The notes: a model not told the origin generated them from the letters alone. A DNA stretch of 64,000 nt from Deltaproteobacteria bacterium (GCA_040004535.1 JBDUAS010000004.1:9508-73507), one strand, 5' to 3'. Shown: positions 19,841-41,277, numbered from the stretch's first letter. Translations and numbers: made by a program.

Positions 19841-19853
19841 TGCCTCCAGAGTA

Positions 19854-20441
19854 TCAGGGTGTGTCGAGCTGGACGGAGAGCGTGTAGCGATTGAAGTTGC
19901 AGGTGCCGTCGCAATCATCGCCCTTGCCGAGTGGCTTGACCGCGATCGCGTATGCGGTTCCCGGCGTCAGCGTCTGCGTGATGCAGCGCGAATCCTCGCC
20001 GCCCGGAGGTGTGTTCTTGCACGCGGTGTCGGTGGCGATCTGCGAGCCGCTGGCGTCGCCGAGCACGAGCGCGAGCGGCTCGAACGCGACCGGGTACGCG
20101 ACGTTGATCTTGACCTCGACGGCAATGCACGCCGACGGCACGGTGAACTGGTACCAATCCTGGCCGTCGTTCGCGGCAAGGCAACCTGCCTGCGAGAACG
20201 GCGCGGAGACGCACGACAGCTGCGAGATCGTGGTGCCGGTCGCCGGCGTGTTGTCGTCGTGCTCGAGGCTCGCGTCGCATGCGAATGCACTCGCGGTCGA
20301 GGCGATCACGCACGTGTTCGTCTTACCGTCGCAAGCCTGGTCGCCGGGGCAGGACGCGTTCGGGCCGCATTCGTACGAGCCGCTCGGGATATCGGGGCTG
20401 CATGCGGCGAGCGCCGCGAGCAGGAACGTCGATGCGCGCAT
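19854..20441 (-). CDS. Cys-rich lipoprotein with pre-peptidase C-terminal-like beta domain (195 aa)
   Basis: Lipobox LAALAAC. DWYQF motif followed by a beta-sandwich-like tail (NRYTLSVQL). The start shares 1 nt with the upstream stop (TGATG). Confidence 0.6.
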   Translation of the reverse strand: MRASTFLLAALAACSPDIPSGSYECGPNASCPGDQACDGKTNTCVIASTASAFACDASLEHDDNTPATGTTISQLSCVSAPFSQAGCLAANDGQDWYQFTVPSACIAVEVKINVAYPVAFEPLALVLGDASGSQIATDTACKNTPPGGEDSRCITQTLTPGTAYAIAVKPLGKGDDCDGTCNFNRYTLSVQLDTP

Positions 20442-21013
20442 CAGAAGCTCCACGCGCGCGCGACGAACGCTCCGCCCTGGGTTGGCGCGACCGAGTAATG
20501 GGGATGGATCACCGTCGCCTGTTCGGCGGGTGCGGTCACGATGAACAGGACCGCCGCGGTGAGCAGTGCCGCGCCGCCGAGGCCGTAGAACACGCCGGCC
20601 TTGACGCCCGAGCTGTGCGCGCGGTCGTAATCGGCCTGCTGCGCCACGGTCCACGGCTGCCCGGTCGGCATCTTCGGCGACACCGCGCTCGCCGCGTCTC
20701 GCGAGTCGAGGTTGTAGTACACGCCGACCGCGCCGAGCACGGCGCCGAGCCCGGCGATCCCGGCGAGCATCGCCACGTTCTTCGTGTCGCGGTCGTCGTA
20801 GACCTTGATCACGATGTCTTTGTGCATCGGCTGTGGGCGGTAGTCCGCCGCGTTGTCGGGATCATGTCCCGGCTGCGCAGATGGTGCAGGCGCAGGCGCC
20901 GGTGCAGGCGCCTCGGCGGGAGCAGGCGGTGCTGGCTCGGCGGGAGCAGGAGGTTCATCGGCAAACGCCTGCGCTGGAAGGAGAAGCGCGAGCGTGATCG
21001 AGGCCAAACGCAT
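20441..21013 (-). CDS. Secreted Pro/Ala-rich membrane-associated protein (190 aa)
   Basis: Signal peptide MRLASITLALLLPAQAFA, a PAPAEPAPPAPAEAPAPAPAPAP low-complexity stretch, two hydrophobic segments, and C-terminus ARAWSF. Confidence 0.5.
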   Translation of the reverse strand: MRLASITLALLLPAQAFADEPPAPAEPAPPAPAEAPAPAPAPAPSAQPGHDPDNAADYRPQPMHKDIVIKVYDDRDTKNVAMLAGIAGLGAVLGAVGVYYNLDSRDAASAVSPKMPTGQPWTVAQQADYDRAHSSGVKAGVFYGLGGAALLTAAVLFIVTAPAEQATVIHPHYSVAPTQGGAFVARAWSF

Positions 21014-21128
21014 ATGGGCGACGTTCCCCCGGCCTGCCCCACCGGTCAATGACAATGGCCTACGGGGGCTGTCATGGCGCGGCCCTGACATCGCTAGCGT
21101 GCCCCACCTCGGGATATGATGTTGACGA

Positions 21129-21797
21129 GTGTCACGGCGCGCGCCCCGCTTCCGCATCGAGCTGAAGGTGACGGTGTCACCGTTACTCGGTGGTCAACTC
21201 GTGGTTTGCCACACGCGGGATATCTCTGACGTCGGCATGTGCCTCGATACCGCCGAATGGTTGCCCGTCGGCACGCGCGTGTCGCTCGCGTTCACCGATC
21301 CGCGCTCCGGCTCTGCGATGGAAGTGATCGGCGACATCGTTCGCGAGGTCAACGGCATCAACCCCGCGCTCGGCGTGTTGCTCGTCGAGCCGCCCGCCGA
21401 GTGGAAGGTGCTCGTCGCGCAGGCCGCGCGCACGACCGGCCATGTCGAACGTCCGGGCCGCCGCATGCGCGTGCTCGTCGTCGGCGACGATCATCGCCAG
21501 CGCGGCGCGATGGCGCTCTACGTCTCGAGCGGCTGGGACATCCTGTTCGCGTCGGACGACTTCGCGGTTCACGAGGCACTCGAGAACATCAAGCTCGATG
21601 CCGTGATCGCAGAGCTCGACGCGAACGATCCGCGGATCGAGCCGATCATGGACGACGTCCGTAAGGCCCAGCCCGCGGCGCGCCGGATCGTGCGCGGCGC
21701 TGGCCGCGGCGACGGCGACCTCGTGCATCGCTACGTCGCTCGCGACTCCGGTCTCGAGGCGCTGCTCGACGCCGTGACCGCGAACATCGGCGTGTAG
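21129..21797 (+). CDS. PilZ domain protein fused to a receiver-like domain (222 aa)
   Basis: PilZ motifs RRAPR and DISDVG. The C-terminal half is receiver-like (MRVLVVGDD ... DAVIAELD). Confidence 0.6.
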   Translation: MSRRAPRFRIELKVTVSPLLGGQLVVCHTRDISDVGMCLDTAEWLPVGTRVSLAFTDPRSGSAMEVIGDIVREVNGINPALGVLLVEPPAEWKVLVAQAARTTGHVERPGRRMRVLVVGDDHRQRGAMALYVSSGWDILFASDDFAVHEALENIKLDAVIAELDANDPRIEPIMDDVRKAQPAARRIVRGAGRGDGDLVHRYVARDSGLEALLDAVTANIGV

Positions 21798-21799
21798 AG

Positions 21800-22177
21800 C
21801 TAGAACGCGTGCGTGGTGGCCGCGATCATCGTCACACCGTCTTGCTCGTAGATCGCGATCGCGTACTCGCGATGGCTGACCGTGTCGCGGACCTTTAACG
21901 GCGAGCCCTTGGTCGCGTCACCGCCCAGGATCTCGAAGCCTTTCAAGGGCTGTTTCGTATAGAAGGCCCGCACCATATCGATCGGATCAGTGGCGATCGT
22001 GAGCACGGTCGGGTCTCCGCCACCGGTGACACCAGCCATGACGCCGCCGGGATACTCCGGGAGCTCGTGCGGCGCTTCAGCCGGCGTCTTGGCCGGCGCG
22101 GCCGGCGAGGTCGGTTGCGAACCGCCGCATGCGGCCGCGATCGCGAGACACCAGCCAAGAAGCTTCACGCGGAGCAA
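21800..22177 (-). CDS. Small lipoprotein (about 125 aa)
   Basis: Lipobox AIAAAC. Last gene of the 23029->21800 minus-strand cluster. Start is TTG 22177 or GTG 22168. Confidence 0.5.
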   Translation of the reverse strand: MLRVKLLGWCLAIAAACGGSQPTSPAAPAKTPAEAPHELPEYPGGVMAGVTGGGDPTVLTIATDPIDMVRAFYTKQPLKGFEILGGDATKGSPLKVRDTVSHREYAIAIYEQDGVTMIAATTHAF

Positions 22178-22193
22178 CGTAGCGCAGGTGCGA

Positions 22194-22613
22194 TCACATC
22201 GGCAGGGCGATGCGCGCTGCGGTGCCCGTGAGCTTGAATTCGCTATAGGTCTGCAGCTGACCGGGTCCGATCACCGGCGTCGGCCGATGCTGCGAGAGCA
22301 CCGCGATCGTGTGCACCGTGACCCCGCCGTCCGCCGGTTGCGGCGAGACGTCTGGAAGCAGCAACACCAGCGACGTGATCGCTCCCGGCACGATCCCGTT
22401 CTTGCGCACGATCGCGGTCACCACCGTGCCCGCATTCGTCGCCGGCCCGACCTTGAGGTCGTCACCGTGACACTCGACCGACGAAGAACCGTCGTCGTAG
22501 ACCAAGATCGGCCCCTTGTACGAACCGGGGCCAATCGGGCCGCCTTTGCCGTCGACGTAATAGTGGATCCGCTTACCGTGGCCGTGAAGATCGTAAAAGT
22601 TTGCCCCTGCCAT
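22194..22613 (-). CDS. Hypothetical protein (139 aa), no recognisable family
   Basis: ATG 22613 lies 6 nt after AGGAG. The product is Gly/Pro/Val-rich and probably all-beta (ANFYDLHGHGKRIHYYVDGKGGPIGPGSYKGPILVYDDG). Confidence 0.55.
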   Translation of the reverse strand: MAGANFYDLHGHGKRIHYYVDGKGGPIGPGSYKGPILVYDDGSSSVECHGDDLKVGPATNAGTVVTAIVRKNGIVPGAITSLVLLLPDVSPQPADGGVTVHTIAVLSQHRPTPVIGPGQLQTYSEFKLTGTAARIALPM

Positions 22614-22732
22614 CGTCATCTCCTGTTGATCGGTTTGCCCCGCCACGGAGCCGAGCTCGTCTCACCGCATGCGATGAAGCCAAGCTCGACTCCTCCTCCT
22701 ACCCGCCAATTCGCCACCCACCCGCCACGACT

Positions 22733-23029
22733 TCAAATCGCCCGAGCCAGCTTCCGCGGCTTCATGAATGGGTTTGCCCACGTCACGAACTCGAGCGCGC
22801 GCACCTTGGTCAGGATGCCGACGTCGAACCGACATAAGTACGTGTCGTCAGGTACGAACTGGAGCAGCTCCACGCCCAGCTGCTCGAGCTCTGCTCGTTG
22901 CTCCGCATCGAGCTCGGACCTGACCTGGAGGAGCAAGTACCGCGTGTCCTTCTCGTCGTTCGAGGTCACTGGCTCTTCTCCGTGCATCGGCGAAATGCAT
23001 GCAACACCGGTGGTCATGCTCTGCGCCAT
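22733..23029 (-). CDS. Stand-alone subtilase-propeptide (inhibitor I9)-like protein (98 aa)
   Basis: YLLLQVRSELDAEQRAELEQLGVELLQFVPDDTYLCRFDVGILTKVRALEFVTWANPF matches the beta-alpha-beta-beta-alpha-beta N-terminal propeptide pattern of S8 peptidases. No catalytic domain follows. Confidence 0.45.
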   Translation of the reverse strand: MAQSMTTGVACISPMHGEEPVTSNDEKDTRYLLLQVRSELDAEQRAELEQLGVELLQFVPDDTYLCRFDVGILTKVRALEFVTWANPFMKPRKLARAI

Positions 23030-23110
23030 CGTGGCTTCCCTTTGGTGCACTAACGATGCCGCGACATTTGCTCCGTTAGCGCCGGCCTCGAGCGGCGCCC
23101 CGGCAAGTGC

Positions 23111-23140
23111 TGCCTAGTCGCGCAAATCTTGCCTAGTCGC
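23111..23140. repeat. Direct repeat TGCCTAGTCGC x2 (period 19 bp) in a divergent promoter region
   Basis: Exact 11-mers at 23111-23121 and 23130-23140, between the propeptide-like gene (minus strand) and the kinase gene (plus strand). Confidence 0.7.
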
Positions 23141-23199
23141 AATTTCCTGATCTTTCTGGTGTTACGAGCTATCGGGCGGGTTTAGGGTGAGGTTGTTCG

Positions 23200-25746
23200 A
23201 TGGCGGATGGGTGGGACCGATCGACGGTCGATATGCCGGTGGGTGCGGAGCGGACGACGAACGAGCGTTCGCCGAGTTCGCTCGCGCGCCGCAACACCCC
23301 CGTGCGTCTTGGTCGTTACGAGATCGTGGAGCCGATCGCTGGCGGCGGGATGGGCTTCGTCTACGCCGCTTACGATCCAGAGCTCGATCGCAAAGTGGCA
23401 CTCAAGGTCGTCCATCCGCGACGCAGTCACAATCCCGGCTCGCACAGCCGTTTGATCAAGGAGGCGCGGGCGCTCGCGCAACTCGACCATCCGAACGTGG
23501 TGAAGGTCCACGACGTGTTCAGCGACGAAGATCAAATCGTCGTCGTGATGGAGCTCGTCAACGGCAAGACCTTGGAGCAGTGGGAAGCCGAACGGCCGCG
23601 GACCTGGCGCGAAGTCGTCGAGGTCTATGTCCAAGCGGGCGAAGGCCTCGCGGCCGCGCACGAGCTCGCCATCGTCCATCGTGACTTCAAACCGGCCAAC
23701 GCGATCATCGGCGCCGACGGACGCGTGCGCGTGCTCGATTTCGGGCTCGCGCGGATCACGAAAGAAGATGTCGGCGATTCGCCCACCGAGGCGATGAGCG
23801 GCGCGATCACGAAGACGATTCCCGGAACGATCATGGGAACGCTCGCGTATGCCGCCCCCGAGCAGCTCTCGGGCGGGGACACGACGACGAGCTCCGATCA
23901 GTTCAGCTTTTGCGCCGCTCTTCACTACGCCATCGAGGGCAAGCGACCGTTCGCGGGCGAGACAGCGCGAGAAATCGCGAGCGCGATCCAGCAAGGCCAT
24001 CCGGCGAGGAGCGGACGTCCGCTGCCCAATTGGTTGCGCGCGTTGGTCGCGCGTGGGCTCGCCGCGACGCGCGAAGAGCGATATCCGTCGATGTCGGCGT
24101 TGCTGCTCGAGCTCGAGCGGCCGCGGGGTTGGAGGCGCTGGCGCTCGCGGGCGTTCGTCGCGGGATCGGTATGCATCGCGGCGTTCGGAGCCAGTGCGGC
24201 GCTCCGGCAACCCGCCCACGCCGACAGCTGCGTGGCGAATGCTAGCGACGTGTGGGCGCCGGTGCAGCTAGTTCGGATCCTCGCAAGCCTCGATCATCCG
24301 GCCATCCCGTTCGCCGACGAGCTCGCGCACAAGGCGGCGACCGAGCTCGATGCGAAAGCGCGCGAGTGGACGGTCGTGGCGCGCGATTCGTGTATGGCGC
24401 ATCACGCCGCGGCGGTATCCGACCCGATGTACGACCGCCAGGTCGCGTGTCTCGCGGAGCGCAAGGCGCAGCTCGGAGCGGCGGTCCAGGTGTTGACGTC
24501 GGGGACGACGGCGACGCACGCGACCGAGGTCGTGTCGGGCGTGCAGAGTGCGAGCGATTGCCTCGACCTGACCCACGTGCTTGCCGTCGAGCAGATTCCG
24601 CCGACGGTGCGCGCGCGGGTCGGCGCAGTGCGTGGACAGCTGCGCGTCGGCGCGGCGCTCACCCGCGCAGGCAGGTTCGACGAAGCGCAGAAGATCTTCG
24701 ATCAAACGCTCGCGGATGCCCGCGCGACCCGCTACGCGCCGGTGCTTGCGGAGGCCCAGCTCGGTCTCGGCCGATTCTACGTCGCAGCGCTCGACAATCC
24801 GCACGCCGGACCGGTGCTACGCGAAGCGACGTCGACAGCGCTGGCGAACAATTTGACAGGAATTGCCGTCGAGGCGATCGGGCGCCGGATCTATGTCGAA
24901 TCGTTGCTTTCCCCAGATCGACAGTTCGAGCGAGACGTCGAGCTCGCAGACCCACTAAGCCGCGCTGTCGGCGAACCTCGCGTGCGCGCGCTCTTTCTCA
25001 ACAATGTTGGAGCCGCCTACTCCGCGCTTGGAGAGACCGAGAGCGCCCGTACACGGTATCGAGAAGCCGCCGCGACAATCTCTAGTTCCGAGACTGACAT
25101 CGAGCTCAGCACGATCGCTTACAACCTCGGCTTGATGGCCGCGGAACCGTCGGAGCGCGTTCGGTTGCTGGACACCGTCGCGGATCAGCGCGCCGCGATC
25201 CTCGGTGTGCACCATCCGTTCACGCTCGAGGCGCGGTTTGCAGCTGCGACCCTGGGCGACGAAGAGGTGGCCCGCCAGAGGCTCCCGGCGATCTGCGGCG
25301 ACTACGGAGCCTATCGCACGACGATGGCGATGATGTTCTCGGAGTGCGAGCGGCGGCTTGCGTTCCTCGCGGAGCACGCAGGCGATGAAACGCGTCACAT
25401 CGAAGCGCTGCGCGCTGCGGTTTCGCCGATCGGGCTCTGGGGTCCCGTGCCGGTGCTCCTCGAAGGAGAGCTCGCCCTCGCGGAGCACAGTATCGACCGC
25501 GCGCGCCAACTACTAACCCGCGCCATCGCCGAATCGACGACCTCCTGGGCGCTCGTCGATCGCGCCGATGGTCACTATTACCTCGCCGAGCTCGCGCTCT
25601 CGACCGGTGATCACGCCGCCGCTGCCGAGCACGCGCGAATCGCTCTCGAAGACTACCGTACGCTGACGAAGACAGATCTGTCGTTCGAGGCCCCGATCAG
25701 AGTCCTACAGGCCGAACAACTGCTGCAAGGAGCTACTGAAAGATGA
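23200..25746 (+). CDS. Ser/Thr protein kinase with long TPR-like C-terminal region (848 aa)
   Basis: Hanks kinase motifs are present: GGGMGFVYAA, VALKV, HRDFKPAN, DFGLA, APE. About 500 aa of helical repeats follow the kinase domain. Confidence 0.85.
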   Translation: MADGWDRSTVDMPVGAERTTNERSPSSLARRNTPVRLGRYEIVEPIAGGGMGFVYAAYDPELDRKVALKVVHPRRSHNPGSHSRLIKEARALAQLDHPNVVKVHDVFSDEDQIVVVMELVNGKTLEQWEAERPRTWREVVEVYVQAGEGLAAAHELAIVHRDFKPANAIIGADGRVRVLDFGLARITKEDVGDSPTEAMSGAITKTIPGTIMGTLAYAAPEQLSGGDTTTSSDQFSFCAALHYAIEGKRPFAGETAREIASAIQQGHPARSGRPLPNWLRALVARGLAATREERYPSMSALLLELERPRGWRRWRSRAFVAGSVCIAAFGASAALRQPAHADSCVANASDVWAPVQLVRILASLDHPAIPFADELAHKAATELDAKAREWTVVARDSCMAHHAAAVSDPMYDRQVACLAERKAQLGAAVQVLTSGTTATHATEVVSGVQSASDCLDLTHVLAVEQIPPTVRARVGAVRGQLRVGAALTRAGRFDEAQKIFDQTLADARATRYAPVLAEAQLGLGRFYVAALDNPHAGPVLREATSTALANNLTGIAVEAIGRRIYVESLLSPDRQFERDVELADPLSRAVGEPRVRALFLNNVGAAYSALGETESARTRYREAAATISSSETDIELSTIAYNLGLMAAEPSERVRLLDTVADQRAAILGVHHPFTLEARFAAATLGDEEVARQRLPAICGDYGAYRTTMAMMFSECERRLAFLAEHAGDETRHIEALRAAVSPIGLWGPVPVLLEGELALAEHSIDRARQLLTRAIAESTTSWALVDRADGHYYLAELALSTGDHAAAAEHARIALEDYRTLTKTDLSFEAPIRVLQAEQLLQGATER

Positions 25747-26975
25747 AACGGCTCGTCCCTTTCGTGATCGTTGTATTCGTGGCCGCGGCTTCGGCCATGG
25801 TCAATGGCTGCTCTTGCAACCATAAGAAGCCCGTGTGCGGAAGCGAGAAGGACTCGGCGAAGGTCGCGCACCAGCTCAAGTACAAGCACAGCGGCAGCAA
25901 CGGCCAGGGAGAGGTGACCGCTTACGTCGACGGTGGCTGTACACCGCCCTGTCCTGGCAACTCACCGATCGTGAACTCGTTCCCGATCAACGGGCTCGAT
26001 CCCGCGGGTATCGGCACCTGCAACCCGGAGCACATCCGGATCGATCCAGGCAACGCGGGCAAGCCGGTCAAGTGTCCGAACGGCAGCGTCGAGTACTCGG
26101 CGGCGACCGGCACGCTCGTGATCAAAAATCCTTCCGGGGGAACGTGCGCCGGCTCTGATCTGGTCGGTGCGTCCTTCGTCGCCAGGACCGAGTCCGGCCA
26201 CGTGACGCTGACGATCAAGGACGTGATCACGATCCCCGCCGGCCTGGCGACGAAAGAAGCATATCGGATCGTCGCCTCGATCCCGGGTTCGCCGCCGTCG
26301 ACGGCCGACCTGTCGGTCTGCGATTCAACGCGCGCAGGTCAGGTCCGCGGCGAGATCGGTCTTGGTCCCAATATCGGCGAGTACAAGGTGACACGGCCCG
26401 GCTGGACCCCGCCGCCGCCGCCGGACCACTGGGATTACGTGATCGCGCTGCCCGGGCCGCTGTACAGCAACATGGTCCAGCCAATCGCGAGCTCGGACGG
26501 TTTCTTCAATCTCGCGTGTGTCGGCAACTCGCTCGCCAAGCTCACGGTCGAGGCCATCACCCTGCCGACCGATGGCGCGCCCACTCAATATGCAGCGCTT
26601 CGCATGATGACTGGAACCTATTGCAACGTGCCGCGGACGATGGCCGGTATGTACATCACGCATGTCCGAGGAACCTCGGGTGCCGGATCTGGGAGCGCGG
26701 AAACGGACTGGTCGGCAGCCGGCGCGGCGTGTCTCGAAGCCCCGCGGCTCCACGAGGTCGGCAACTATCCGGACGTGACGTTCAGTAGCGATCTGATTCC
26801 ACCCGGCTGCGGACCTACCGGCCACGAGCACTGCATGACCTGGAAGGACTACGCCGACAGGGTGCGCGCGGAATGCGCGACTGGTAGTGACCCGATCACG
26901 GTCAACGACCACTGCACGGAACCCACCGGTACGATGTTCGAGTCGTTCACCAGTCTGTCGTACACGAGTCCGTAG
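25743..26975 (+). CDS. ADYC-like domain lipoprotein (410 aa)
   Basis: ATGA overlap with the kinase stop. Signal/lipobox AMVNGCSC and many Cys residues. FFNLACVGNSLAKL ... ALRMMTGTYCNVPRTMAGMYI resembles the myxobacterial ADYC-domain core (recalled, not searched). Confidence 0.5.
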   Translation: MKRLVPFVIVVFVAAASAMVNGCSCNHKKPVCGSEKDSAKVAHQLKYKHSGSNGQGEVTAYVDGGCTPPCPGNSPIVNSFPINGLDPAGIGTCNPEHIRIDPGNAGKPVKCPNGSVEYSAATGTLVIKNPSGGTCAGSDLVGASFVARTESGHVTLTIKDVITIPAGLATKEAYRIVASIPGSPPSTADLSVCDSTRAGQVRGEIGLGPNIGEYKVTRPGWTPPPPPDHWDYVIALPGPLYSNMVQPIASSDGFFNLACVGNSLAKLTVEAITLPTDGAPTQYAALRMMTGTYCNVPRTMAGMYITHVRGTSGAGSGSAETDWSAAGAACLEAPRLHEVGNYPDVTFSSDLIPPGCGPTGHEHCMTWKDYADRVRAECATGSDPITVNDHCTEPTGTMFESFTSLSYTSP

Positions 26976-26978
26976 CGG

Positions 26979-28715
26979 CTACTTGCGGCGGTCGTGGCCG
27001 TCGATGCCGTACTGTCGCATCCGGAACGTGAACGTCCGCAGCGGCATCCCGATCGCCGCCGCAGCGTGGGTCTGGACGCCGTCGTGCGCCTCGAGCGCCT
27101 CGACAATCCGCCGGCGCTCGAGCTCGCGAAGCTCCTCGTTGACCGGGCGGAACTTCCGCTCCGTACGCAGGGCCGGAATCTCGTCGGTCTTGCGCCCCAT
27201 CACACGCGCCGGCAAGTCCCACGGTTGGATCAGCGGCCCTTCCGTCGTCGCGACCGCGAAGTCGATCGCGTTCTTGAGCTCGCGCACGTTGCCGGGAAAG
27301 TCATAGCGCGCGAGCTCGGCGAGCGTGCTCTCCGCGAGCTCGAGGCCGAGCCGACCGAGCCGGTGCGATTCGAGCCGCATGAACATGCGCGCGAGTAGCG
27401 GAATCTCCTGGCGCCGGTGCCTCAGCGGCGGGATCGCCACGGTCGCGGCGCTCAGCCGGAACAATAGATCCTGACGAAACCGGCCTTGCGAGACCGCCGC
27501 ATCGAGATCGATGTTCGTCGCGGCGACGATGCGGACGTCGACCTCGCGCTCCCGAACGTCGCCGAGGCGCGTGATGCGCTTGAGCTCGAGCGCACGTAAC
27601 AGCTTCGCCTGCAACGCGAGCGAGAGATCGCCGACCTCGTCGAGGAAGAGCGTTCCGCCGTCCGCGCGCTCCATGAGCCCGGACTTCGCGGTCTTCGCAT
27701 CGGTGAACGCACCGCGCTCGTAACCGAACAGCTCGCTCTCCGCGAGCGACTCGGGCAGCGCGGCACAGTTGAGCGACACGAACGGGCCTTCCGCGCGCGG
27801 CGACCACGCGTGGACAGCCGCGGCCGCGTTCTCCTTACCGCTGCCGGTTTCGCCGGTCACCAGCACGGTCAGATCGCTGCGCGCGAGCCGGCGGATCAGG
27901 TCGTAGAGCTTCAGCATCGCCGCATCGGCGAGGACGACGCGGTTGCCACCGATCTTGTGCTCGATCGACGCGGATGACGCGACGACTAGATCTCCCGGTT
28001 GTGCCATCGCCATCGAGCTCCGCGCCGCCGCCAGGAGCGTCCCGGTGTCACAACCATCCGCGGGGTAGCTCGCAATCCCGCCATTTGCATCGGGCCCGAT
28101 CGCCGTGAGCAGCGCCATGCCGTGCGCCTTGCCCGCTTGCGCATCGAGCTCGGGGAGCAGCGCGATCACGGTGGTCCCCTGGAAGCACAACACGTCCATC
28201 GGCCGGAGCGCAGCGAGCGCCGAGGCAGCGACCGAACGCGGTCGCGAACCGAGTAACCGGATCACGACGACGCTGAACGGACGATCGTATTCGGTCGCGC
28301 GCGCGATCTCTTGATCGATGCGGCGATTCATCTGGTCGAGATCGATCGAGTCGGCCGAGACGCGCGCGGCAGTACGCAGGATCAAAAGGGTATCGGCGAT
28401 CGTCACCACATCGCCGGATGTGAGGTCGACGGTGCCCTCGATCCGCTCGCCGTTGAGCAGCGTTCCGTTGTGACTCCCGAGATCCGCGATCTGCGCGCGG
28501 CCGCCGGCGACCACGATCTTCGCGTGATTGCGCGACACCGCATCCGAGTTGATCTGAACATCCGCCTCCCGCGAACGCCCGATCTGAAGCACACCATCCG
28601 ACGGAACCCGGATCGTGCGCGACGACATGTGATCGATCGCGATCAAGAACGATGCGGACGCTTCTTCACTCGGTACGTGATCGAGCGTCCGCGTATCTGT
28701 GCCACCCGGCGCCAT
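26979..28715 (-). CDS. FHA-domain sigma-54-dependent transcriptional activator (578 aa)
   Basis: FHA domain (LQIGRSREADVQINSDAVSRNHAKI ... GSHNGTLLNG). AAA+ domain (GETGSGKE, ESELFGYERGAFTDA, LFLDEVG). C-terminal Fis-type HTH. Confidence 0.85.
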   Translation of the reverse strand: MAPGGTDTRTLDHVPSEEASASFLIAIDHMSSRTIRVPSDGVLQIGRSREADVQINSDAVSRNHAKIVVAGGRAQIADLGSHNGTLLNGERIEGTVDLTSGDVVTIADTLLILRTAARVSADSIDLDQMNRRIDQEIARATEYDRPFSVVVIRLLGSRPRSVAASALAALRPMDVLCFQGTTVIALLPELDAQAGKAHGMALLTAIGPDANGGIASYPADGCDTGTLLAAARSSMAMAQPGDLVVASSASIEHKIGGNRVVLADAAMLKLYDLIRRLARSDLTVLVTGETGSGKENAAAAVHAWSPRAEGPFVSLNCAALPESLAESELFGYERGAFTDAKTAKSGLMERADGGTLFLDEVGDLSLALQAKLLRALELKRITRLGDVREREVDVRIVAATNIDLDAAVSQGRFRQDLLFRLSAATVAIPPLRHRRQEIPLLARMFMRLESHRLGRLGLELAESTLAELARYDFPGNVRELKNAIDFAVATTEGPLIQPWDLPARVMGRKTDEIPALRTERKFRPVNEELRELERRRIVEALEAHDGVQTHAAAAIGMPLRTFTFRMRQYGIDGHDRRK

Positions 28716-28885
28716 CCTTCCAGCAGCTTAACCGAGCCGGTCATCTGCCGGCCAGTGGACCGTAGCCTACCGAGTCCACTAACCAATCCCTAACCACCCC
28801 GAACCAAGCCACGCAGTGTCCAAACCCACCGGATTCGCCAATTCTGTGCCGGTCTGCTGGCGATTCCCCCGGTTACTCTCCTCCA

Positions 28886-29659
28886 ATGTTGCGCATCGCG
28901 CTCGCGAACCTTCGCTATCCCGAGTCGCCGGATGATTCGGTGGCGCGCGTTGTCGCCGCGCTCGGGCGCGCGGACGGCGCGCGGATCATGTGCTTCCCCG
29001 AGTGCTACGTCCCCGGCTATCGCGGGCTCGGTCATGCCCCAGCGACCGTCGACGAGGAATGGCTCGAGCGCGCATGGGCACGGATCGCAGACGCGGCGCG
29101 CGCGGCGGAGTGCGCGGTGGTGCTCGGCACCGAGCGCTGGGTCGGTGGAAAGCTGGTCGCGACGGCGCTCGTGATCGATGCGAGCGGCCGCGGCATGGGG
29201 TTTCAAGACAAGGTCCAGATCGATCCGGCCGAGGAAGGCACGTACGAGCCAGGGCGGGAGCGCTGCGTGTTCCGGCTCGGCGACGTCACGGTCGGCGTCG
29301 TGATCTGCCACGAGGGCTGGCGCTATCCGGAGACGGTGCGCTACGCGGCGCGCCACGGCGCCGAGCTCGTGTTTCACCCGCACTATAGCGCGCCCGAGCG
29401 GGGCACGTTCCGGCCGACGACGTTCGCGGATCCGGCGAACACGTTCCACGAGAAGGCGGCGCTGTGTCGCGCGGCGGAGAACACGATCTACTTCGCGACC
29501 GTGAACTACGCGACCGCAGGCTCACCGACGACGTCGGCGGTCGTCGATCCAGAAGGCGTGCTCGTCGCGAGCCAGCCCTACGGCGAGGCCGGTGTGCTCG
29601 CCATGGACATCGATCTCGCGAAGGCCACGAGGCTGCTCGCGAAGCGCTGCAAGAGTTAG
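28886..29659 (+). CDS. Carbon-nitrogen hydrolase (nitrilase superfamily) (257 aa)
   Basis: The Glu-Lys-Cys triad contexts are present: CFPECYVPGY, FQDKVQ, VICHEGWRYPE. Confidence 0.85.
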   Translation: MLRIALANLRYPESPDDSVARVVAALGRADGARIMCFPECYVPGYRGLGHAPATVDEEWLERAWARIADAARAAECAVVLGTERWVGGKLVATALVIDASGRGMGFQDKVQIDPAEEGTYEPGRERCVFRLGDVTVGVVICHEGWRYPETVRYAARHGAELVFHPHYSAPERGTFRPTTFADPANTFHEKAALCRAAENTIYFATVNYATAGSPTTSAVVDPEGVLVASQPYGEAGVLAMDIDLAKATRLLAKRCKS

Positions 29660-31218
29660 CTGCGAACGTAGTGCGTTGATCCGCCGAGGATCACGAGGCC
29701 ATCGGCGGAGACCTCGGCGTAGGCGTCGTCGATCGGTAGCGCGAGGTCGCCGAGGGTTACCAGGCCGTCGGTAATCGGCGCGGAGCCGTGCGTGACGACC
29801 GCGGCGCGGCCCCGACGCAGCTGCAGTGGTTGCAACGCGCCATCGCGCTCGGCCCACCACAGGGTCGAGCCGTCGTGCGAGAACACGAGCTTAATGTCCC
29901 AAGCGTGCTCCGTCGTCGCGAGCGTGACCTCGTGCAGAAGCTCGAGCGAGTGGTTGTCGTGGACGCGCAGTGTGCCGCGGCTCAGGATCGCATGCGTGCG
30001 GCCGTCTGGTGCGAACGCGACGGCATCCCGGATCGTCGCACGGTGATCGCGATCGTCGACGAGCGTCTCGCCGGTCGTCGAGTCCCATAGGTGGTAGCCG
30101 AACGGCATGATCTCGACGAGGACGTCGTCGCACAGTGCGCGACAATCGCGCGGCGGACCGCCTTCGAGCCAGTTGCCCAGGCCATGGAAGGAAATCGCCG
30201 CGAGTTGCTCACCGGAATGCGCGTCGCACACGACCCGGCCTGTGATCGCACGCGTTCCATCGGGCGAGAGTGCGACGAGGCCGAGCGTGTAGTTTCCATC
30301 GACGCGGGCGTGCACGACGCGCTCCGGATCGAACACGCGCACGACCTGCAGGGTACGCGTCGCGAACGTGCCGTCCGCGGCCATCACCAGACCCATGCCA
30401 GCGATGCTTCCGCGGCGTAGCTCGACACCATCCGCCGACCACGCGTACAGCAAGTCCCGACGGTCCGTCGTGTAGATCGTCGCGCCGCGCCGCGCCGCAG
30501 CCACACACTCGAACGGAATCATCGAGCGTCGCGCGCCACTGCGTAGATCGACGAAGTACGTGAAGTACTCGTAGTCCTCGCCGTAGCCCTCGTCGTAGCT
30601 AGCGGTGACGACCGCGAGCTCGTCATCGAGCACGATCAGCTGGAGCGGATCGTGCGCGGTATCGATCGGGAGCGGCCATACGTGCGAGTCGGAGACCAGC
30701 TCGCGGCGCTCGCGGACGAGCTTCCACGTCGGCTGGCGCGCGACAGGCATGGCCATCACCACACGCCGCCCACTCGCCCGATCCCACGCGACCTCGTCGC
30801 CCAGCCCCACGTGGGACGCGGTCAACCACAGCGGACCCGCAGCGCCGCTGCGATACTCCTCGATCACACCGCTGTCGAGCGGCATCTGCGGCGTGCGCAG
30901 CGAACGCAAGAACGGGCGGTTCCAACTCGCTTCCCACGAGCGCGCGAGCCCGCGCACTGCTGCCGCGTCGACGGGAGGCGCGGTGCGCTGTGCGAATGGC
31001 GGGAACTCCGCACCGAGCCACGTGCAGCGGCGAAGCAAGCACGGCACGACCAACCCGGGCCGCTCGACCAGGACCGCGAGATCGATCCGCAACGCGCGCG
31101 CGATCCAGTGCCGCGCATCGCCGACCTCCATCCAGTCATGGATCAACACCGGCAGCTGACCGGCATCGGCTTCGTCGATCACGCGCGAGAGCAGCGCATC
31201 GACCGCGGAGCGCTTCAC
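29656..31218 (-). CDS. TIGR02996-like N-terminus plus beta-propeller-like repeat protein (520 aa)
   Basis: The GTG start overlaps the upstream stop (GTGA). LPVLIHDWMEVGDARHW resembles the LVYADWLEExGD repeat-companion motif. Repeated SPDGT/APDGR/SHDGS/SADGL units follow. Confidence 0.6.
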   Translation of the reverse strand: MKRSAVDALLSRVIDEADAGQLPVLIHDWMEVGDARHWIARALRIDLAVLVERPGLVVPCLLRRCTWLGAEFPPFAQRTAPPVDAAAVRGLARSWEASWNRPFLRSLRTPQMPLDSGVIEEYRSGAAGPLWLTASHVGLGDEVAWDRASGRRVVMAMPVARQPTWKLVRERRELVSDSHVWPLPIDTAHDPLQLIVLDDELAVVTASYDEGYGEDYEYFTYFVDLRSGARRSMIPFECVAAARRGATIYTTDRRDLLYAWSADGVELRRGSIAGMGLVMAADGTFATRTLQVVRVFDPERVVHARVDGNYTLGLVALSPDGTRAITGRVVCDAHSGEQLAAISFHGLGNWLEGGPPRDCRALCDDVLVEIMPFGYHLWDSTTGETLVDDRDHRATIRDAVAFAPDGRTHAILSRGTLRVHDNHSLELLHEVTLATTEHAWDIKLVFSHDGSTLWWAERDGALQPLQLRRGRAAVVTHGSAPITDGLVTLGDLALPIDDAYAEVSADGLVILGGSTHYVRS

Positions 31219-31697
31219 GGTTCCGTCTCGAGCTCCATGCGAACGATGCTCGAGCGCTGCTTTTCGAGCACGACCTCGAGCTGCTTCTGCGCCATCTCTT
31301 CGCGCAACCGCGCCGCGCGATCGCGGGTGGCCCGGGCGACCGCCGCGAGCGACACGACCCGCGCGACCGTGACCGCGACCTGGGTCGCTGCCTCGACGAT
31401 CACCATGCGGTCGGGCGGATCGGCGAGCGCGCGCTCGACCGCGGTCAGCAATCGATCGAACACCGACTCGGCATCCGAGAGCACGTTCTCTTCGGAGTCG
31501 CCCCACGCGAGCCGGCGCGCGACCGCGTCGTGCAGCGTGAGATCCAAGCCGGGGATCGATTCGCCGCCGATCTGCAGCGCGCTCACGATCGCGTCGAACA
31601 CTTCGGCGCCCGGCGGATCGCGATCGCCATGCTCGACGGTATCGAGCACTTCATCGCGCAGCACGCGTACAGCTTCGACGAGGTCGACGTCTGACAT
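31215..31697 (-). CDS. Small acidic helical protein (160 aa), unknown
   Basis: ATG shares 1 nt with the upstream stop (TGATG). No motif recognised. Confidence 0.55.
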   Translation of the reverse strand: MSDVDLVEAVRVLRDEVLDTVEHGDRDPPGAEVFDAIVSALQIGGESIPGLDLTLHDAVARRLAWGDSEENVLSDAESVFDRLLTAVERALADPPDRMVIVEAATQVAVTVARVVSLAAVARATRDRAARLREEMAQKQLEVVLEKQRSSIVRMELETEP

Positions 31698-33571
31698 CAC
31701 CACTCCGTGGTGCCGCGGTTCTCCCACGGCTGGCTGTGATCGATCGTGGTCGCGTACTTGCGCTCGAGATCGGCGCGCTTGCGTTCGAACATCGCGACCT
31801 GGTCGCGCATTTCGGCGGTCTTCGCCTGGACCTCGCGGAGGCGGTCGGAATACGGCGCCACCGCTTCGAGCACGAGCCCCGTCGTCGCGCCGACGAGCCG
31901 CTGGTGGGCGCCGCTGAGCGCGCGCAGCACCTTCGATCGCATCGCGTCCGTCGCGGTGATCTGATGAACACACGCCGCCGTGATGATGCGCGCCTGATCG
32001 AGCGCGTCGTAGAGCGGCATGATGCCGGTATCGTCGACGGGCCGCATGCCGTAGATCTCGCGCGCGGCGAGCACCGCGCTCGCGAAATTGCCGGTCGCGT
32101 CGATCGCGATCGTCTCGAGCGCGCCGAGGATCTGTTTGACGAGCTCCGCGCGCTGCGCCGTGCGGCTGCGCGCGATCGTGATCGTCTGCTGGATCGAAGC
32201 AATCAGCTCCGCGCTGACCCCAGGGCTCGTGACCGGCCGATCCGGCCGCAGGAACGGGACGGTCGGGTTGTCGATGAAGCGATCACCGGTGTCCTCGAGC
32301 GCGGTGTCCAGGGCCGTATCGACGGACGTTTCACCGCCATCGATCGTCTCCTGCATCGCCGCATGGACCTTGATCAGCTCGGCATCGACCCGGTTCAACC
32401 GCTCCGCGAGCAGGCCACCGATCGCGAGCTCCGCGACGACGAGCGCGCGCGACACCGCGATCGATAGCAGGAACCCCAAGTTCGCGTCGACGACGCCGAT
32501 CTCGTCGACGACCGCACGCGCACTGGTCGCGAGGATGTCCATCAGCGCGCGCAGCGGCGCCCACTCACCGGAGCGATCGAACCAGCCGCCGGCGATGTTC
32601 TGGGCGAACGTCCACACGTTCACCCCGGTCGACTTCTCGAGATCATGAAAGATCGCCTGGCACAGCGAGCTCGCGATCAGCTCGAGCGCTTCCTCGGGAT
32701 CGAGCCCGCGCACGATCGGATTCTTCGTCAGCCCGCGATCCTTCGCGACCTGCAAGAACCGCGAGCGCCGTTGCCACCACTGCATTGCGCCGGTCGTGCG
32801 CACGACCTCCGTCGACGACGGCGGCGGTTGCGGCGCTTCGATCACGATCGTCGTGACGTTGTCGCCGCCTCCGCCGCGCAGTGCGAGATCGATCAAATCG
32901 CGCGCGACGTGCTCCGGCGCATCGCCCGAGCCGAGCAAGTACTGGATCGCTTCGGCCGACGCGTAGCCGTAGAGCCCGTCGCTGCACAGCATCAGCCGAT
33001 CGCCCGGACGCAGCTCGACATCGACGACGTCGATCCGCGCATCAGGCTTCGCGCCGAGGTTGCGCGATAGCACGTTCTTGTACGGATGACGCTCGGCTTC
33101 CTCCGCGGACAAGAGGCCCTTGTCGACGAGCTCCTCGACGATCGTGTGATCGCGCGTCAACATCTGGACGCGGCCGTTGCGCAACAGGTACGCGCGGCTA
33201 TCACCGACGTGCGCGACGACTGCGCGCTTCGGATCGACGACGATGCAGCCGACCACGGTCGTGCCCATGCCGTGGCGCTCGCGCGCTTGCTGGGCGGCAT
33301 TGAAGACCGTCGCCGACGCATGCTGGATCGCCGCTTCGAGCAACGCGCGCGGCTCCATCGTCATCCGCCGCTGCAACACGAACTCGCGGATCGCATCACG
33401 CGCGGTCTGCGACGCGACGTCGCCCGCATTCGCGCCGCCCATGCCGTCGAGCACGACGTACAAGCCGCGCACCGGATCGACGATCATCGAGTCTTCGTTC
33501 GTCGTCCGGACCTTGCCGACGTTCGTATCGCCGGCGACGCGAATCCCTTGCTGCGACGCGGTCTGGGTCAC
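31697..33571 (-). CDS. PP2C-family Ser/Thr phosphatase with about 370-aa uncharacterised C-terminal domain (624 aa)
   Basis: PP2C motifs are intact: VRTTNEDS, VLDGMGG, HVGDSRAY, CSDGLYG, GGGDNVTTIVI. The GTG start overlaps the upstream stop (GTGA). Confidence 0.8.
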   Translation of the reverse strand: MTQTASQQGIRVAGDTNVGKVRTTNEDSMIVDPVRGLYVVLDGMGGANAGDVASQTARDAIREFVLQRRMTMEPRALLEAAIQHASATVFNAAQQARERHGMGTTVVGCIVVDPKRAVVAHVGDSRAYLLRNGRVQMLTRDHTIVEELVDKGLLSAEEAERHPYKNVLSRNLGAKPDARIDVVDVELRPGDRLMLCSDGLYGYASAEAIQYLLGSGDAPEHVARDLIDLALRGGGGDNVTTIVIEAPQPPPSSTEVVRTTGAMQWWQRRSRFLQVAKDRGLTKNPIVRGLDPEEALELIASSLCQAIFHDLEKSTGVNVWTFAQNIAGGWFDRSGEWAPLRALMDILATSARAVVDEIGVVDANLGFLLSIAVSRALVVAELAIGGLLAERLNRVDAELIKVHAAMQETIDGGETSVDTALDTALEDTGDRFIDNPTVPFLRPDRPVTSPGVSAELIASIQQTITIARSRTAQRAELVKQILGALETIAIDATGNFASAVLAAREIYGMRPVDDTGIMPLYDALDQARIITAACVHQITATDAMRSKVLRALSGAHQRLVGATTGLVLEAVAPYSDRLREVQAKTAEMRDQVAMFERKRADLERKYATTIDHSQPWENRGTTEW

Positions 33572-34032
33572 TGCTTGCCTCGTTCGCGCACGGCAAGCTC
33601 GCTCCACTGACCGACGCGGCGCGCGAGCTCTTCGGCGACGAGGTCGTTGACCGCGCGCGCGGTCGTCGCGGTCACCCGCGTCAACAGTAGCGTGAGCTCG
33701 GCGCCGTCGATCGAGCCGGCGAGCTCGTCCTGGGCGACTTGCGCCGCCGTGTCGCCGATCGCGACGAGCATCGCGAGCACCGCGGCGGGGCCTTGCGCCT
33801 CGGCGGCGCGCATCGCGAGGAACGTCTGCAGGAACGCGCGGTGCGACCCTAGGTCTCCGGATGCGAGAAAGTTCCCGAGATGCTCGAGGACCGCGCTGAT
33901 CTGGGCGCGGGCGGTGGCTTCGTCGATGCGCCCGAACGACGGATCGAGGGTCGCGCGCATGTCGAGCAAGCGCTGGAGCACGACCGGACGAAGATTGTCG
34001 TAGGCCCGTGCCAGCGGGGGCTCTGTCGACAT
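33568..34032 (-). CDS. Small helical protein (154 aa), unknown; first gene of the PP2C operon
   Basis: The internal ATG at 34032 is the only plausible start of the long 33568-34779 ORF. The upstream part of that ORF is antisense to the receiver gene. Confidence 0.55.
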   Translation of the reverse strand: MSTEPPLARAYDNLRPVVLQRLLDMRATLDPSFGRIDEATARAQISAVLEHLGNFLASGDLGSHRAFLQTFLAMRAAEAQGPAAVLAMLVAIGDTAAQVAQDELAGSIDGAELTLLLTRVTATTARAVNDLVAEELARRVGQWSELAVRERGKQ

Positions 34033-34083
34033 CGTCTCGACAATACACCGCGCAAGATGCGGGTGGTACGCTCCGGCGACGCA

Positions 34084-34854
34084 ATGGCGGCCGCAAGCTC
34101 GGTGGTGAAAGGTGGCCGCATCCTCGTCGTGGACGACGAGCCGATGGTGCGCGACACGCTGGGCCAGGTGCTTGCCGACGAGGGTTACGTCGTCGATGTC
34201 GCCGCCGACGGCGCCGATGCGCTCGACCGCGTCCACGCCGCCCGTCCGGACGCGATCTTGCTCGATCTCATGATGCCCGGCATGAACGGTCGCCAGTTCT
34301 TGCAGGCGCTGCGCGACGACTCCGCCTACAGCGCCGTGCCGGTGTTGATCATGACCGCCGTCCACGGCCTCGAGATCAACCTGACCGCGATCGGGGCGAG
34401 CGAGGTCGTCGAGAAGCCGTTCCAGATCGAGGAGCTCCTCAACAAGATCGCACTCGCCGTGTATCGCTCGCGCGACGCGAACGCGTCGGCACCGATTCCG
34501 GTGCCGGTGGAGCCCGAGCCGCTGGCGATCGATCGCGGCGTGGTGCTCGTCGTCGAGCACGACCGCGCACGACTCCAGCGCGTCGACATGTTGCTCAGCC
34601 AGCGCGGTTACACGGTCGTGTCGATGACGCGCGCCGGTGGTCAGCTGCCGCGGCTCGCGCGCGCGCTGCGACCGCGCGCGATCTTGCTCGAGTTCGCGAG
34701 CGAAGGTGCGGTCAGCGTCGTCCGCGAGCTCCGCGATATCAGCGGCCAGCTCGGGATCCTGCTGTACTCGCGCGAGCACGTCTCGGCCAGGCCCGACGTC
34801 CTGTCCGCGGTGACCGACGCCGAGCTCGTCGAGTTCGTCGATCTACAGCCCTAG
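34084..34854 (+). CDS. Response regulator with two receiver domains and no output domain (256 aa)
   Basis: REC1 is canonical: ILVVDDEP ... ILLDLMMPGMNG ... VLIMTA ... KPF. REC2 is degenerate (VVLVVEHD ...). Confidence 0.8.
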   Translation: MAAASSVVKGGRILVVDDEPMVRDTLGQVLADEGYVVDVAADGADALDRVHAARPDAILLDLMMPGMNGRQFLQALRDDSAYSAVPVLIMTAVHGLEINLTAIGASEVVEKPFQIEELLNKIALAVYRSRDANASAPIPVPVEPEPLAIDRGVVLVVEHDRARLQRVDMLLSQRGYTVVSMTRAGGQLPRLARALRPRAILLEFASEGAVSVVRELRDISGQLGILLYSREHVSARPDVLSAVTDAELVEFVDLQP

Positions 34855-39954: not shown

Positions 39955-41277
39955 ATGTTCGACCCGGCGGTGTTTGCCGCGCGACGTGCAGCTCTGATGG
40001 AAGCGATCGGTCCCGACGCGGTCGCGATCGTGCGGTCGCTGCCGGAGCGGCTGCGCAACGGGGATGCGTTCCATCCGTTTCGCCAGGCGTCCGATGTCGT
40101 GTACCTGACCGGCTTCGTCGAACCGGAGACCACGCTCGTGGTGCGGCCGGGCGCCGAGACCGATCGCGTGGTGATGTTCGTGCGGCCGCGCGATCCGGAT
40201 CTCGAGACGTGGGATGGCCGCCGCGCCGGGCTCGAAGGTGCGAAGGAGCGTTTCGGTGCCGATGCCGCATACCCGGCGCACGAGCTCGAGACGAAGTTGC
40301 CGGACCTGCTCGCGAACGTCGACGAGTGGCACGTCGGGCTCGGCATCGATGACGACCTCGACGCACTGGTCGCGCGGACGCTCGCGAAGCTGCGACGCAC
40401 CGAGAAGAAGGGCAAGCGGCCGCCGCGCGCGATCGTCGATCCGCGGGTCGCGCTACACGAGCTGCGCTTGAAGAAGCGGCCCGAAGAGCTCGCGGCACTG
40501 CGCGAGGCGGCGACGATCTCGAGTGACGCCCACATCGCGGCGATGCAGACCGGCCGCCCCGGTGTGTACGAGCACGAGCTCGAAGCGGTGATTAACTACA
40601 CGTTTCGCCGGCGCGGCGGCGGCGGTCCCGGCTACGCGACGATCGTCGGCGCGGGCGTCAACGCGACGATCCTCCATTACATCGAGAACCGCTGCAAGAT
40701 CGCTGACGGTGACCTCGTGCTCGTCGACGCGGGCTGCGAGTACGACCACTACACCGCCGACATCACGCGAACGTGGCCGGCAAACGGCAAGTTCTCGCCG
40801 GCGCAGCGCGACGTTTACGAGCTCGTGTTGACGACCCAGCTCGGCGCGATCGCGATGGCGAAGCCGGGCGCGACGCTCGAGCAGATCCACGAGTACTGCG
40901 TGCGCTCGCTGACCGAAGGCATGGTCGCGCTGAAGCTGGTGCAGGGCTCGGTCGAGGAGCTGATCGCCGACCACAGCTATCGCAAGTTCTACATGCATGG
41001 CACGTCCCACTGGCTCGGCCTTGATGTCCACGATGCCGGTGCATACACCCGCGGTGGCAAGGCGCGCGCGCTCGAGCCGGGCATGGTGATCACGATCGAG
41101 CCCGGCCTCTACATCGCGAGCGACGCGCCGGGCGTGCCCGATGCGCTGCGCGGTATCGGCGTGCGGATCGAGGACGATCTCGTGATCACGACCGGCGCGC
41201 CGGAGGTCCTGACCGCCGCCTGCCCGAAGCAGATCGCAGAGCTCGAGGCGCTGACTCGTTGCGTCGGCAACGCGTGA
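39955..41277 (+). CDS. pepP: Xaa-Pro aminopeptidase (M24B) (440 aa)
   Basis: DLVLVDAGCEYDHYTADITRT, HGTSHWLGLDVHD, VITIEPGLY, GVRIEDD. Confidence 0.9.
   Translation: MFDPAVFAARRAALMEAIGPDAVAIVRSLPERLRNGDAFHPFRQASDVVYLTGFVEPETTLVVRPGAETDRVVMFVRPRDPDLETWDGRRAGLEGAKERFGADAAYPAHELETKLPDLLANVDEWHVGLGIDDDLDALVARTLAKLRRTEKKGKRPPRAIVDPRVALHELRLKKRPEELAALREAATISSDAHIAAMQTGRPGVYEHELEAVINYTFRRRGGGGPGYATIVGAGVNATILHYIENRCKIADGDLVLVDAGCEYDHYTADITRTWPANGKFSPAQRDVYELVLTTQLGAIAMAKPGATLEQIHEYCVRSLTEGMVALKLVQGSVEELIADHSYRKFYMHGTSHWLGLDVHDAGAYTRGGKARALEPGMVITIEPGLYIASDAPGVPDALRGIGVRIEDDLVITTGAPEVLTAACPKQIAELEALTRCVGNA

Follow-up and report, generated by a model that had tools for sequence, protein, structure and literature searches.

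A 64,000-nucleotide stretch of DNA from a Deltaproteobacteria bacterium (GCA_040004535.1 JBDUAS010000004.1:9508-73507; this whole stretch is called the window below) carries on its minus strand four tightly packed genes, one of which encodes a PP2C-type protein phosphatase with a long C-terminal extension. The question raised by this locus is whether the genes around the phosphatase form a signalling system that has not been described, and, if they do, which of them belong to it. An earlier note, made from the sequence alone, proposed a stoichiometric quartet. We find that the first three genes constitute a real, conserved and undescribed phosphatase module, in which known kinds of parts occur in a new arrangement; the undescribed system proposed in the note thus stands for three of the genes and falls for the fourth. 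The minus-strand genes are called A, B, C and D, and the plus-strand receiver gene next to A is called the divergent regulator. The positions of the minus-strand genes are as follows:

33568-34032, minus strand: gene A, 154 amino acids, first gene of the trio, open reading frame overlapping B
31697-33571, minus strand: gene B, 624 amino acids, open reading frame of the PP2C phosphatase
31215-31697, minus strand: gene C, 160 amino acids, open reading frame, final gene of the conserved trio
29656-31218, minus strand: gene D, 520 amino acids, open reading frame overlapping the stop of C by GTGA

These genes and their junctions (GTGA between A and B, TGATG between B and C, GTGA between C and D) are present in the DNA as they had been described, and the G+C content at third codon positions (GC3) is 0.83-0.88 in each of the four.

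Related loci were collected by a scan with a five-sequence alignment, taking one genome per species, and the best 80 of 96 loci were used. The presence of genes in loci L001-L081 was determined by tblastn with the window proteins and counted where the contig extends far enough. All scanned loci are from metagenome-assembled genomes, mostly labelled Kofleriaceae, Haliangiales, Myxococcales or Deltaproteobacteria. The 81 related loci, which are of the Kofleriaceae/Haliangiales type, all retain genes A, B and C wherever the contig permits, and C, the most conserved of the three, is present in every one of them. The four-nucleotide overlap between A and B is retained in 63 of 73 related loci, and the gap between B and C is from -4 to +6 nucleotides in 66 of 80. 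Because the overlap and the short gap recur across related loci, the stop-start couplings within A-B-C exceed chance. The trio was also found in six distant metagenome lineages (contigs of 48-73% G+C, B tail 26-38% identical), in which A-like and C-like genes abut or overlap B, often with a receiver gene, an M24 aminopeptidase gene and a PilZ-REC gene close by. The module is so far confined to Myxococcota. The conserved unit is A-B-C, usually accompanied by the divergent receiver, and the unit to be studied is accordingly corrected from four genes to three plus the receiver.

Rare exceptions to the usual layout were also seen. In one locus (L064:7110-8012) B and C lie about 0.86 kb apart, and in another (L049:1456-2619) the A homologue extends into a Ser/Ala/Gln-rich repeat tail of about 230 amino acids, giving a protein of 388 amino acids in total.

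The distribution of D is different from that of the trio. It has no tblastn match in the 81 related or the six distant loci, so that none of the 80 species-representative loci has it, not even one that is 88-94% identical. D was found only in L082, a 92%-identical relative, where it again overlaps C by GTGA and where it is 82% identical, versus 90-98% for A, B and C. Since D is absent from the related loci except L082, it is a recent local addition, a lineage-specific passenger or accessory and not part of the conserved module. The idea of a four-gene signalling system with D as an integral sensor or scaffold, built on a propeller fold, can draw on the GTGA overlap with the stop of C in both the window and L082, but it has to face the absence of D elsewhere, its faster divergence and its location within a variable insertion between C and the usual PilZ-REC gene. 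As a conserved system the quartet is excluded by synteny; co-conservation of all four genes, whose lack the earlier note had itself named as a possible refutation, fails for D, and we regard an integral role of D as very improbable. Because the overlap with C is found in both loci, D is probably co-transcribed with the trio in the narrow clade comprising the window and L082.

What kind of enzyme stands at the centre of the module can be answered with some certainty for its catalytic part:

32822-33571, minus strand: N-terminal approximately 250 residues of B, a PP2C/PPM Ser/Thr phosphatase domain of the Stp1/IreP type (NF033484, Pfam and motifs)

Residues 16-245 of B match the Stp1/IreP model NF033484 with 236.5 bits (cut-off 230, E 2.6e-70) over the whole 232-position profile. 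B is also above the Pfam cut-offs for PP2C and PP2C_2, and SpoIIE was matched too. The translation contains RTTNEDS, LDGMGG, CSDGLYG and GGGDNVT, which represent the xED, DGxGG, xDG and GxDN classes of metal-binding motifs, so the intact PP2C domain that had been recognised in this part of B, with every motif quoted for it, is there. By its catalytic domain, and by this domain only, B is judged from its sequence to be a member of the Stp1/IreP family. The motifs are retained in the relatives with a single exception: the variant P0157 keeps the helical tail and has degenerate PP2C motifs (DGAET for DGMGG, CSSAV for CSDGL, no GGGDN), and may be a catalytically dead pseudo-phosphatase.

The remaining approximately 370 residues of B, connected to the PP2C domain by a linker of about ten residues, were modelled with AlphaFold2 (model m8d227fe88bf1) from an input alignment of 16 diverse tails. 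The mean predicted local distance difference test score (pLDDT) was 83.5, and the model consists of two six-helix subdomains (model residues 1-165 and 205-361), each with a long terminal helix:

32336-32830, minus strand: first C-terminal helical subdomain of B, model residues 1-165, approximately B residues 248-412, six helices
32219-32335, minus strand: variable, low-confidence linker between the subdomains of B, pLDDT below 50 at model residues 173-193
31700-32218, minus strand: second C-terminal helical subdomain of B and a short tail, model residues 205-361, six helices by DSSP

The final helix is 49 residues long in the first subdomain, most of which has a pLDDT above 90, and 37 residues long, with coiled-coil character, in the second. 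For the last 374 residues of B neither single-sequence nor profile queries gave a Pfam, NCBIfam, PADLOC or PDB-sequence match, the PDB profile search returning nothing but coiled coils (Smc, kinesin, coronin) at profile positions 311-352. At the level of fold the situation is different. When the tail was compared as a whole with the PDB by Foldseek, entry 3zta was found with a probability of 0.97 (TMt 0.63, E 1.2), a globin sensor domain, allophycocyanin and haemoglobins followed at probabilities of 0.6-0.75, and the tandem di-alpha haemoglobin 1o1n aligned over 349 columns (probability 0.41). 3zta is an entry on the bacterial stressosome, and its 139-residue chain is presumably the non-haem globin N-domain of a Moorella RsbR-type protein. 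The model thus argues for a tail of two helical subdomains, at least one of them globin-like. The earlier description of these residues as helical and matching nothing recognisable is right as to the helices and the sequence searches, and has to be given up at the level of fold.

Tails of this kind are rare: a search of 1.84 billion representative proteins with the isolated tail yielded just 79 clusters. In each of the approximately full-length matches (about 570-700 amino acids) the tail starts at about residue 245-300, after an N-terminal part of PP2C size, and the retrieved tail-bearing sequences carry PP2C motifs. Full-length B has many relatives with more than 70% identity, annotated as Kofleriaceae. 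One retrieved protein, P0129 (696 amino acids), starts A-like and passes by way of garbled sequence into the B tail; this is more suggestive of a frameshift or a wrong assembly, giving a read-through from A into B, than of a real fusion.

The linker between the two subdomains is variable except for the motif F-x-[DE]-Q-P-T-[VIL]-P-[FYL], encoded at 32255-32272 (minus strand, approximately B residues 434-439). Its Thr (approximately B residue 437; T190 of the first aligned sequence) is nearly invariant, the column being Ser or Thr at a frequency of 0.94 in the 16-sequence alignment (a column of at least 90%). The motif resembles a site for docking or phosphorylation, an FHA domain being one possible partner.

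The two small proteins flanking B are acidic, as had been noticed before (isoelectric point 5.2 for A and 4.5 for C), and with the window proteins as queries neither gave a Pfam, NCBIfam, PADLOC or PDB-sequence match above noise, the PDB being searched with single sequences as well as with profiles. The structure of C was predicted by AlphaFold2 (model ma71429381c67) from 54 diverse homologues, obtained by a profile search seeded with distant sequences. The model (pLDDT 94.0, predicted TM-score 0.81) is a compact helical domain followed by a 65-residue C-terminal helix, hence for C the claim that the small proteins are all-helical agrees with the predicted structure. Nearly all of the top 50 PDB matches of this model in Foldseek were globins. 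The best was again 3zta (probability 0.99, TMt 0.55, E 0.14); neuroglobins and pXO1-118 (3pmd) reached 0.97, HemAT was also among the matches, and the globin-coupled sensors, with probabilities of 0.89-0.98 overall, were represented by those of Geobacter, Azotobacter and Bordetella at up to 0.98.

A was connected to C by profile comparison. With alignments restricted to Kofleriaceae no relationship between A and C was detected, it emerged only once distant homologues had been added: hhalign of the two families then gave a probability of 95.8% and an E-value of 7.5e-9 over 118 columns (94.6% in a local repeat of the comparison). On the strength of this match between diverse alignments A and C are classed as distant paralogues. 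In addition, 7 of 42 members of the A family weakly matched PF20302, the HisK-N-like globin domain of Pfam (best E 0.0028), and 2 of 42 matched RsbRD_N (E about 0.1). The paralogy to C and these hints together make A a putative non-haem sensor-globin-like protein. The faint resemblance of the small proteins to RsbR-type N-terminal sensors, which the earlier note had mentioned with reserve, is in this way supported for C by fold comparison and for A by its homology to C.

Conservation of alignment columns was evaluated with 16 sequences for the B tail, 50 for C and 42 for A. No near-invariant His or Cys column was found in any of the three. No His column exceeds 75% in the B tail or reaches 60% in C, and the only one to do so in A, located near the N-terminus, is conserved at 68%. 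Because these families have no near-invariant His or Cys, haem binding is unlikely, and the modules of A, C and the B tail are probably haem-free.

How these parts might work together is best explained, in our view, by assuming that A, B and C form a single cytoplasmic Ser/Thr phosphatase complex, a 'globin-coupled' PP2C gated by globin-like modules, and we assign this interpretation a probability of roughly 0.55. B would provide Stp1/IreP-type catalysis joined to two tandem helical modules, at least one of which would be sensor-globin-like, and A and C would be stand-alone paralogous modules of the same kind as the B tail. The overlapping stops and starts would ensure that the three proteins are made in fixed proportion. 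In RsbR N-domains and globin-coupled sensors, pairing takes place through the terminal helices; by analogy, the modules of the complex would be expected to pair through their own long helices at the end, two of them acting in cis (the B tail) and two in trans (A and C). A ligand- or state-dependent change in the modules would then be passed to the PP2C domain, and would gate its activity or its choice of substrate, the presumed substrates being proteins phosphorylated by Hanks-type kinases.

Several observations weigh against this interpretation. The Foldseek E-values are not significant (0.1-1.2 overall, 0.1-0.5 in the C list) and the TM-scores do not exceed 0.63 (0.4-0.55 in the C list), thus the globin assignment is one drawn from consistent match lists and from predicted, not solved, structures. 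For the B tail 3zta was the only match of high probability, and it is not assigned to one of the two subdomains. Profile comparisons of the B tail, whole or split, revealed no similarity with A or C, nor any between the two B subdomains, and for this reason the notion that sequence paralogy can be detected among all four modules was rejected. Literature searches turned up no paper describing a PP2C with globin-like partners or the families of A, the B tail and C. Finally, gene adjacency and coupling would fit equally well with A and C being substrates, chaperones or inhibitors of the phosphatase.

The modest fold statistics have to be considered also from another side. It is conceivable that the helical parts are a structural coiled-coil or scaffold which places the phosphatase at the pole or at the envelope, and that the likeness to globins is incidental to helical bundles in general. 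All modelled parts (C and both B subdomains) end in long helices, the PDB profile matches of the B C-terminus are coiled coils, the Foldseek E-values are weak, and the PilZ-REC protein encoded by a recurrent neighbouring gene shares its architecture with PixA of Myxococcus xanthus, a PilZ-REC protein which controls cell polarity and reversal (PMC8316039). On the other hand, the match list of C is made up mostly of globins of many kinds and not of generic bundles, independent sequence hints tie A to globin-type sensor families, and the helical cores are conserved beyond what a scaffold would need. We consider the scaffold explanation quite unlikely.

A different explanation keeps the regulatory character of the module and changes the roles. 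A and/or C could be substrates or pseudo-substrate inhibitors of B, with the B tail as a docking platform, in a partner-switching-like module lacking STAS; an unlinked Hanks-type kinase would phosphorylate A and C, and their phosphorylation state would control a downstream target. Small substrates often flank PP2C genes, and the genes of the trio are tightly coupled. Position 47 of C, in a loop of lower confidence (pLDDT block 79), is Ser or Thr in 86% of the sequences, and Ser/Thr is fairly well conserved at positions 28, 58 and 81 of A. A Hanks kinase with TPR repeats and an FHA-sigma54 activator are, moreover, encoded 1-6 kb downstream in the window and in L001. However, neither the A nor the C family has an invariant Ser/Thr column, the folds of A and C are of the sensor-domain type and not STAS, and the kinase and the FHA activator each occur in few of the 81 loci, with some of the matches weak. 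In our estimate this arrangement is unlikely, for the substrate or inhibitor role of A and C as well as for the phosphorylation by an unlinked kinase.

The globin-coupled complex can also be taken one step further. A, C and both B subdomains might together make a haemoglobin-like bundle of four haem-free globin domains, in which a small ligand, hydrophobic or redox-active, would be bound and by which the PP2C domain would be switched on or off. This is a tentative extension, which we find possible but doubtful. If it were true, the bundle would represent a new 'globin-coupled phosphatase' class confined to Myxococcota, a gate on the very large Ser/Thr kinase network of this phylum, possibly linked to the orphan receiver and to the PixA-like PilZ-REC neighbours and thereby related to polarity.

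It is instructive to compare the module with known systems. The stressosome (RsbR-RsbS-RsbT with RsbU; Bacillus, Moorella, Vibrio) would have in common with it, if the predicted folds hold, the non-haem globin-like sensors with their long terminal helix, coupled to the control of a PP2C-family phosphatase, and 3zta is the highest-probability fold match of both C and the B tail. Unlike the stressosome, the trio has no STAS protein, RsbT-type kinase, sigma factor or anti-sigma factor in the operon or nearby. For STAS domains, A, B, C, D and the divergent regulator were negative at E <= 1, and so were ten genes around them at E <= 0.001; the genes scanned between 17.8 and 35.8 kb include no STAS protein, HATPase_c-type kinase or anti-sigma factor; and no RsbT/RsbW-type kinase was found among the called genes of the related loci. 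The earlier note had found no such partner in the operon and had concluded that this was not a textbook partner switch or stressosome, and both statements hold, as no STAS protein and no such kinase was found in these searches. In the stressosome the globin-like modules sit on a STAS core and act through a released kinase, whereas the predicted modules of the trio are fused to the C-terminus of the phosphatase or are free. By analogy, the module would be most like a stressosome input joined directly to the phosphatase output.

Globin-coupled sensors (HemAT, AfGcHK, BpeGReg, AvGReg, GsGCS) are similar to the predicted arrangement in having a sensor-globin fold linked by helices to an enzymatic output. 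They bind haem through a proximal His, and their globin is N-terminal; the A, B and C families have no near-invariant His, B reverses the order with PP2C first, and A and C are separate proteins without an output domain. No globin-coupled sensor with a PP2C output of the B architecture turned up in literature searches. The Stp1/IreP/PrpC phosphatases are alike in that the catalytic domain of B meets the equivalog cut-off and has all metal-binding motifs. Canonical members are about 240-250 amino acids long or membrane-anchored, and their genes come together with that of a PASTA or Hanks kinase. In contrast, B carries a helical tail of 370 residues and is accompanied by two small partners of its own, and no conserved kinase gene adjoins it. 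A useful parallel for A and C is provided by the sporulation inhibitors pXO1-118 and pXO2-61 of Bacillus anthracis, non-haem sensor globins that occur as free proteins. Each is similar to the sensor part of a signalling enzyme, which it modulates in trans, and pXO1-118 binds a fatty acid. However, they are plasmid-borne antagonists of a sporulation histidine kinase, whereas the enzyme of A and C is a phosphatase to which A and C are translationally coupled, and A and C are chromosomal and always co-inherited with it.

Myxobacteria have very many Hanks-type Ser/Thr kinases and few phosphatases, and the regulation of these phosphatases is largely uncharted. The analysis brings to light a conserved phosphatase, restricted to the phylum, with what would be regulatory parts of its own: A, C and the B tail, three protein families for which neither Pfam nor NCBIfam has a model. 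Should the globin-like modules prove to be genuine sensors, they offer a direct handle on an input into the phosphorylation network, and the use of the non-haem globin sensor domain would be extended to a simpler wiring, in which it is fused to a phosphatase without a STAS core or a switch kinase. In this kinase-rich phylum the module is a testable entry into phosphatase regulation.

The operon shares its upstream region with the divergent regulator:

34084-34854, plus strand: divergent response regulator, 256 amino acids (Pfam Response_reg, E 5.9e-31, in two stretches)
34033-34083, between A and the regulator: 51-bp divergent control region with two conserved -10-like blocks

The first half of the regulator is a canonical REC domain; the second is REC-like but degenerate, with Glu in place of the phospho-acceptor Asp, and there is no output domain. 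The common 51-bp region and the double receiver without output were thus described correctly, with the amendment that the second receiver half is degenerate. Of the Kofleriaceae-type loci with enough flank, all but L079 have a match to the regulator located divergently from A. Among the distant loci, orthologues adjoin A in L085 (a single REC, 53% identity) and L088 (47%), and not in L083 or L086. The divergent orphan receiver is likely to be a functional partner of the trio, and is the best candidate for this role.

In the control region the minus-strand block GGTGTATTGT (TATTGT at 34040-34045; consensus GGTGTAnnnT) ends 7 nucleotides before the ATG of A, and the plus-strand block GGTGGTACGCT (TACGCT at 34067-34072) ends 11 nucleotides before the ATG of the regulator. 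Aligning 75 related upstream regions showed both to be conserved. In appearance they are -10 promoter elements that overlap back to back, and the mRNA of A may be leaderless. A simple sigma-70 scan of the 51-bp region returned no site; a sigma-54 promoter was also considered, and none convincing was seen on inspection of the same region.

On the other side of the trio, C is the last gene in most relatives; a PilZ-REC gene in convergent orientation comes directly after it, and beyond this lie two small genes and the gene of a 7TM-SpoIIE phosphatase. In the window the equivalent block lies at 17792-21797:

21129-21797, plus strand: PilZ-REC gene
between these, two small genes
17792-19918, minus strand: 7TM-SpoIIE phosphatase gene

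The PilZ-REC protein of the window has the same domain architecture as PixA, the likeness being one of architecture alone. Between its gene and C the window carries an insertion of about 9 kb (21990-31218), which contains, besides D, a CN-hydrolase gene and a 375-residue open reading frame without a Pfam match, the following genes:

26979-28715: FHA-sigma54 activator
25743-26975: ADYC protein
23200-25746: Hanks kinase with TPR repeats

Even close relatives differ in what they carry here: two Cys-rich secreted proteins are encoded in L001, D and the hydrolase alone in L082. The FHA-sigma54 activator and the Hanks kinase were considered as dedicated conserved partners of the trio and rejected, since few loci have them near it. 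At their stop codons D and the convergent CN-hydrolase gene share 4 bp (29656-29659), in the window as well as in L082, which suggests that the two genes arrived together or are kept together. Like D, the nitrilase-family gene was found by tblastn in none of the 81 related loci.

D itself gave no NCBIfam match at E <= 1, so the resemblance of its N-terminus to TIGR02996, which had been suggested, could not be reproduced, and no Pfam family was above its cut-off. A propeller-like body had also been proposed. RACK1 (WD40) chains matched amino acids 377-463 only (E 5.8e-4), and Pfam Beta-prop_THOC3 matched far below its cut-off (E 0.063); judged by these weak matches, the C-terminal half of D may be WD40-like.

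An anti-phage defence role of the locus was considered as well, and was rejected because A, the B tail, C and D had no PADLOC match at E <= 1 and because the genomic context is that of a stable core genome. In the distant loci L083, L085, L086 and L088 an M24 Xaa-Pro aminopeptidase gene adjoins the receiver gene or A, and in Kofleriaceae the M24 gene is a few kb further off, behind VWA, GGT and OmpA genes (39997-41076 in the window). This arrangement suggests an old core-genome neighbourhood around the trio, which has since been expanded.

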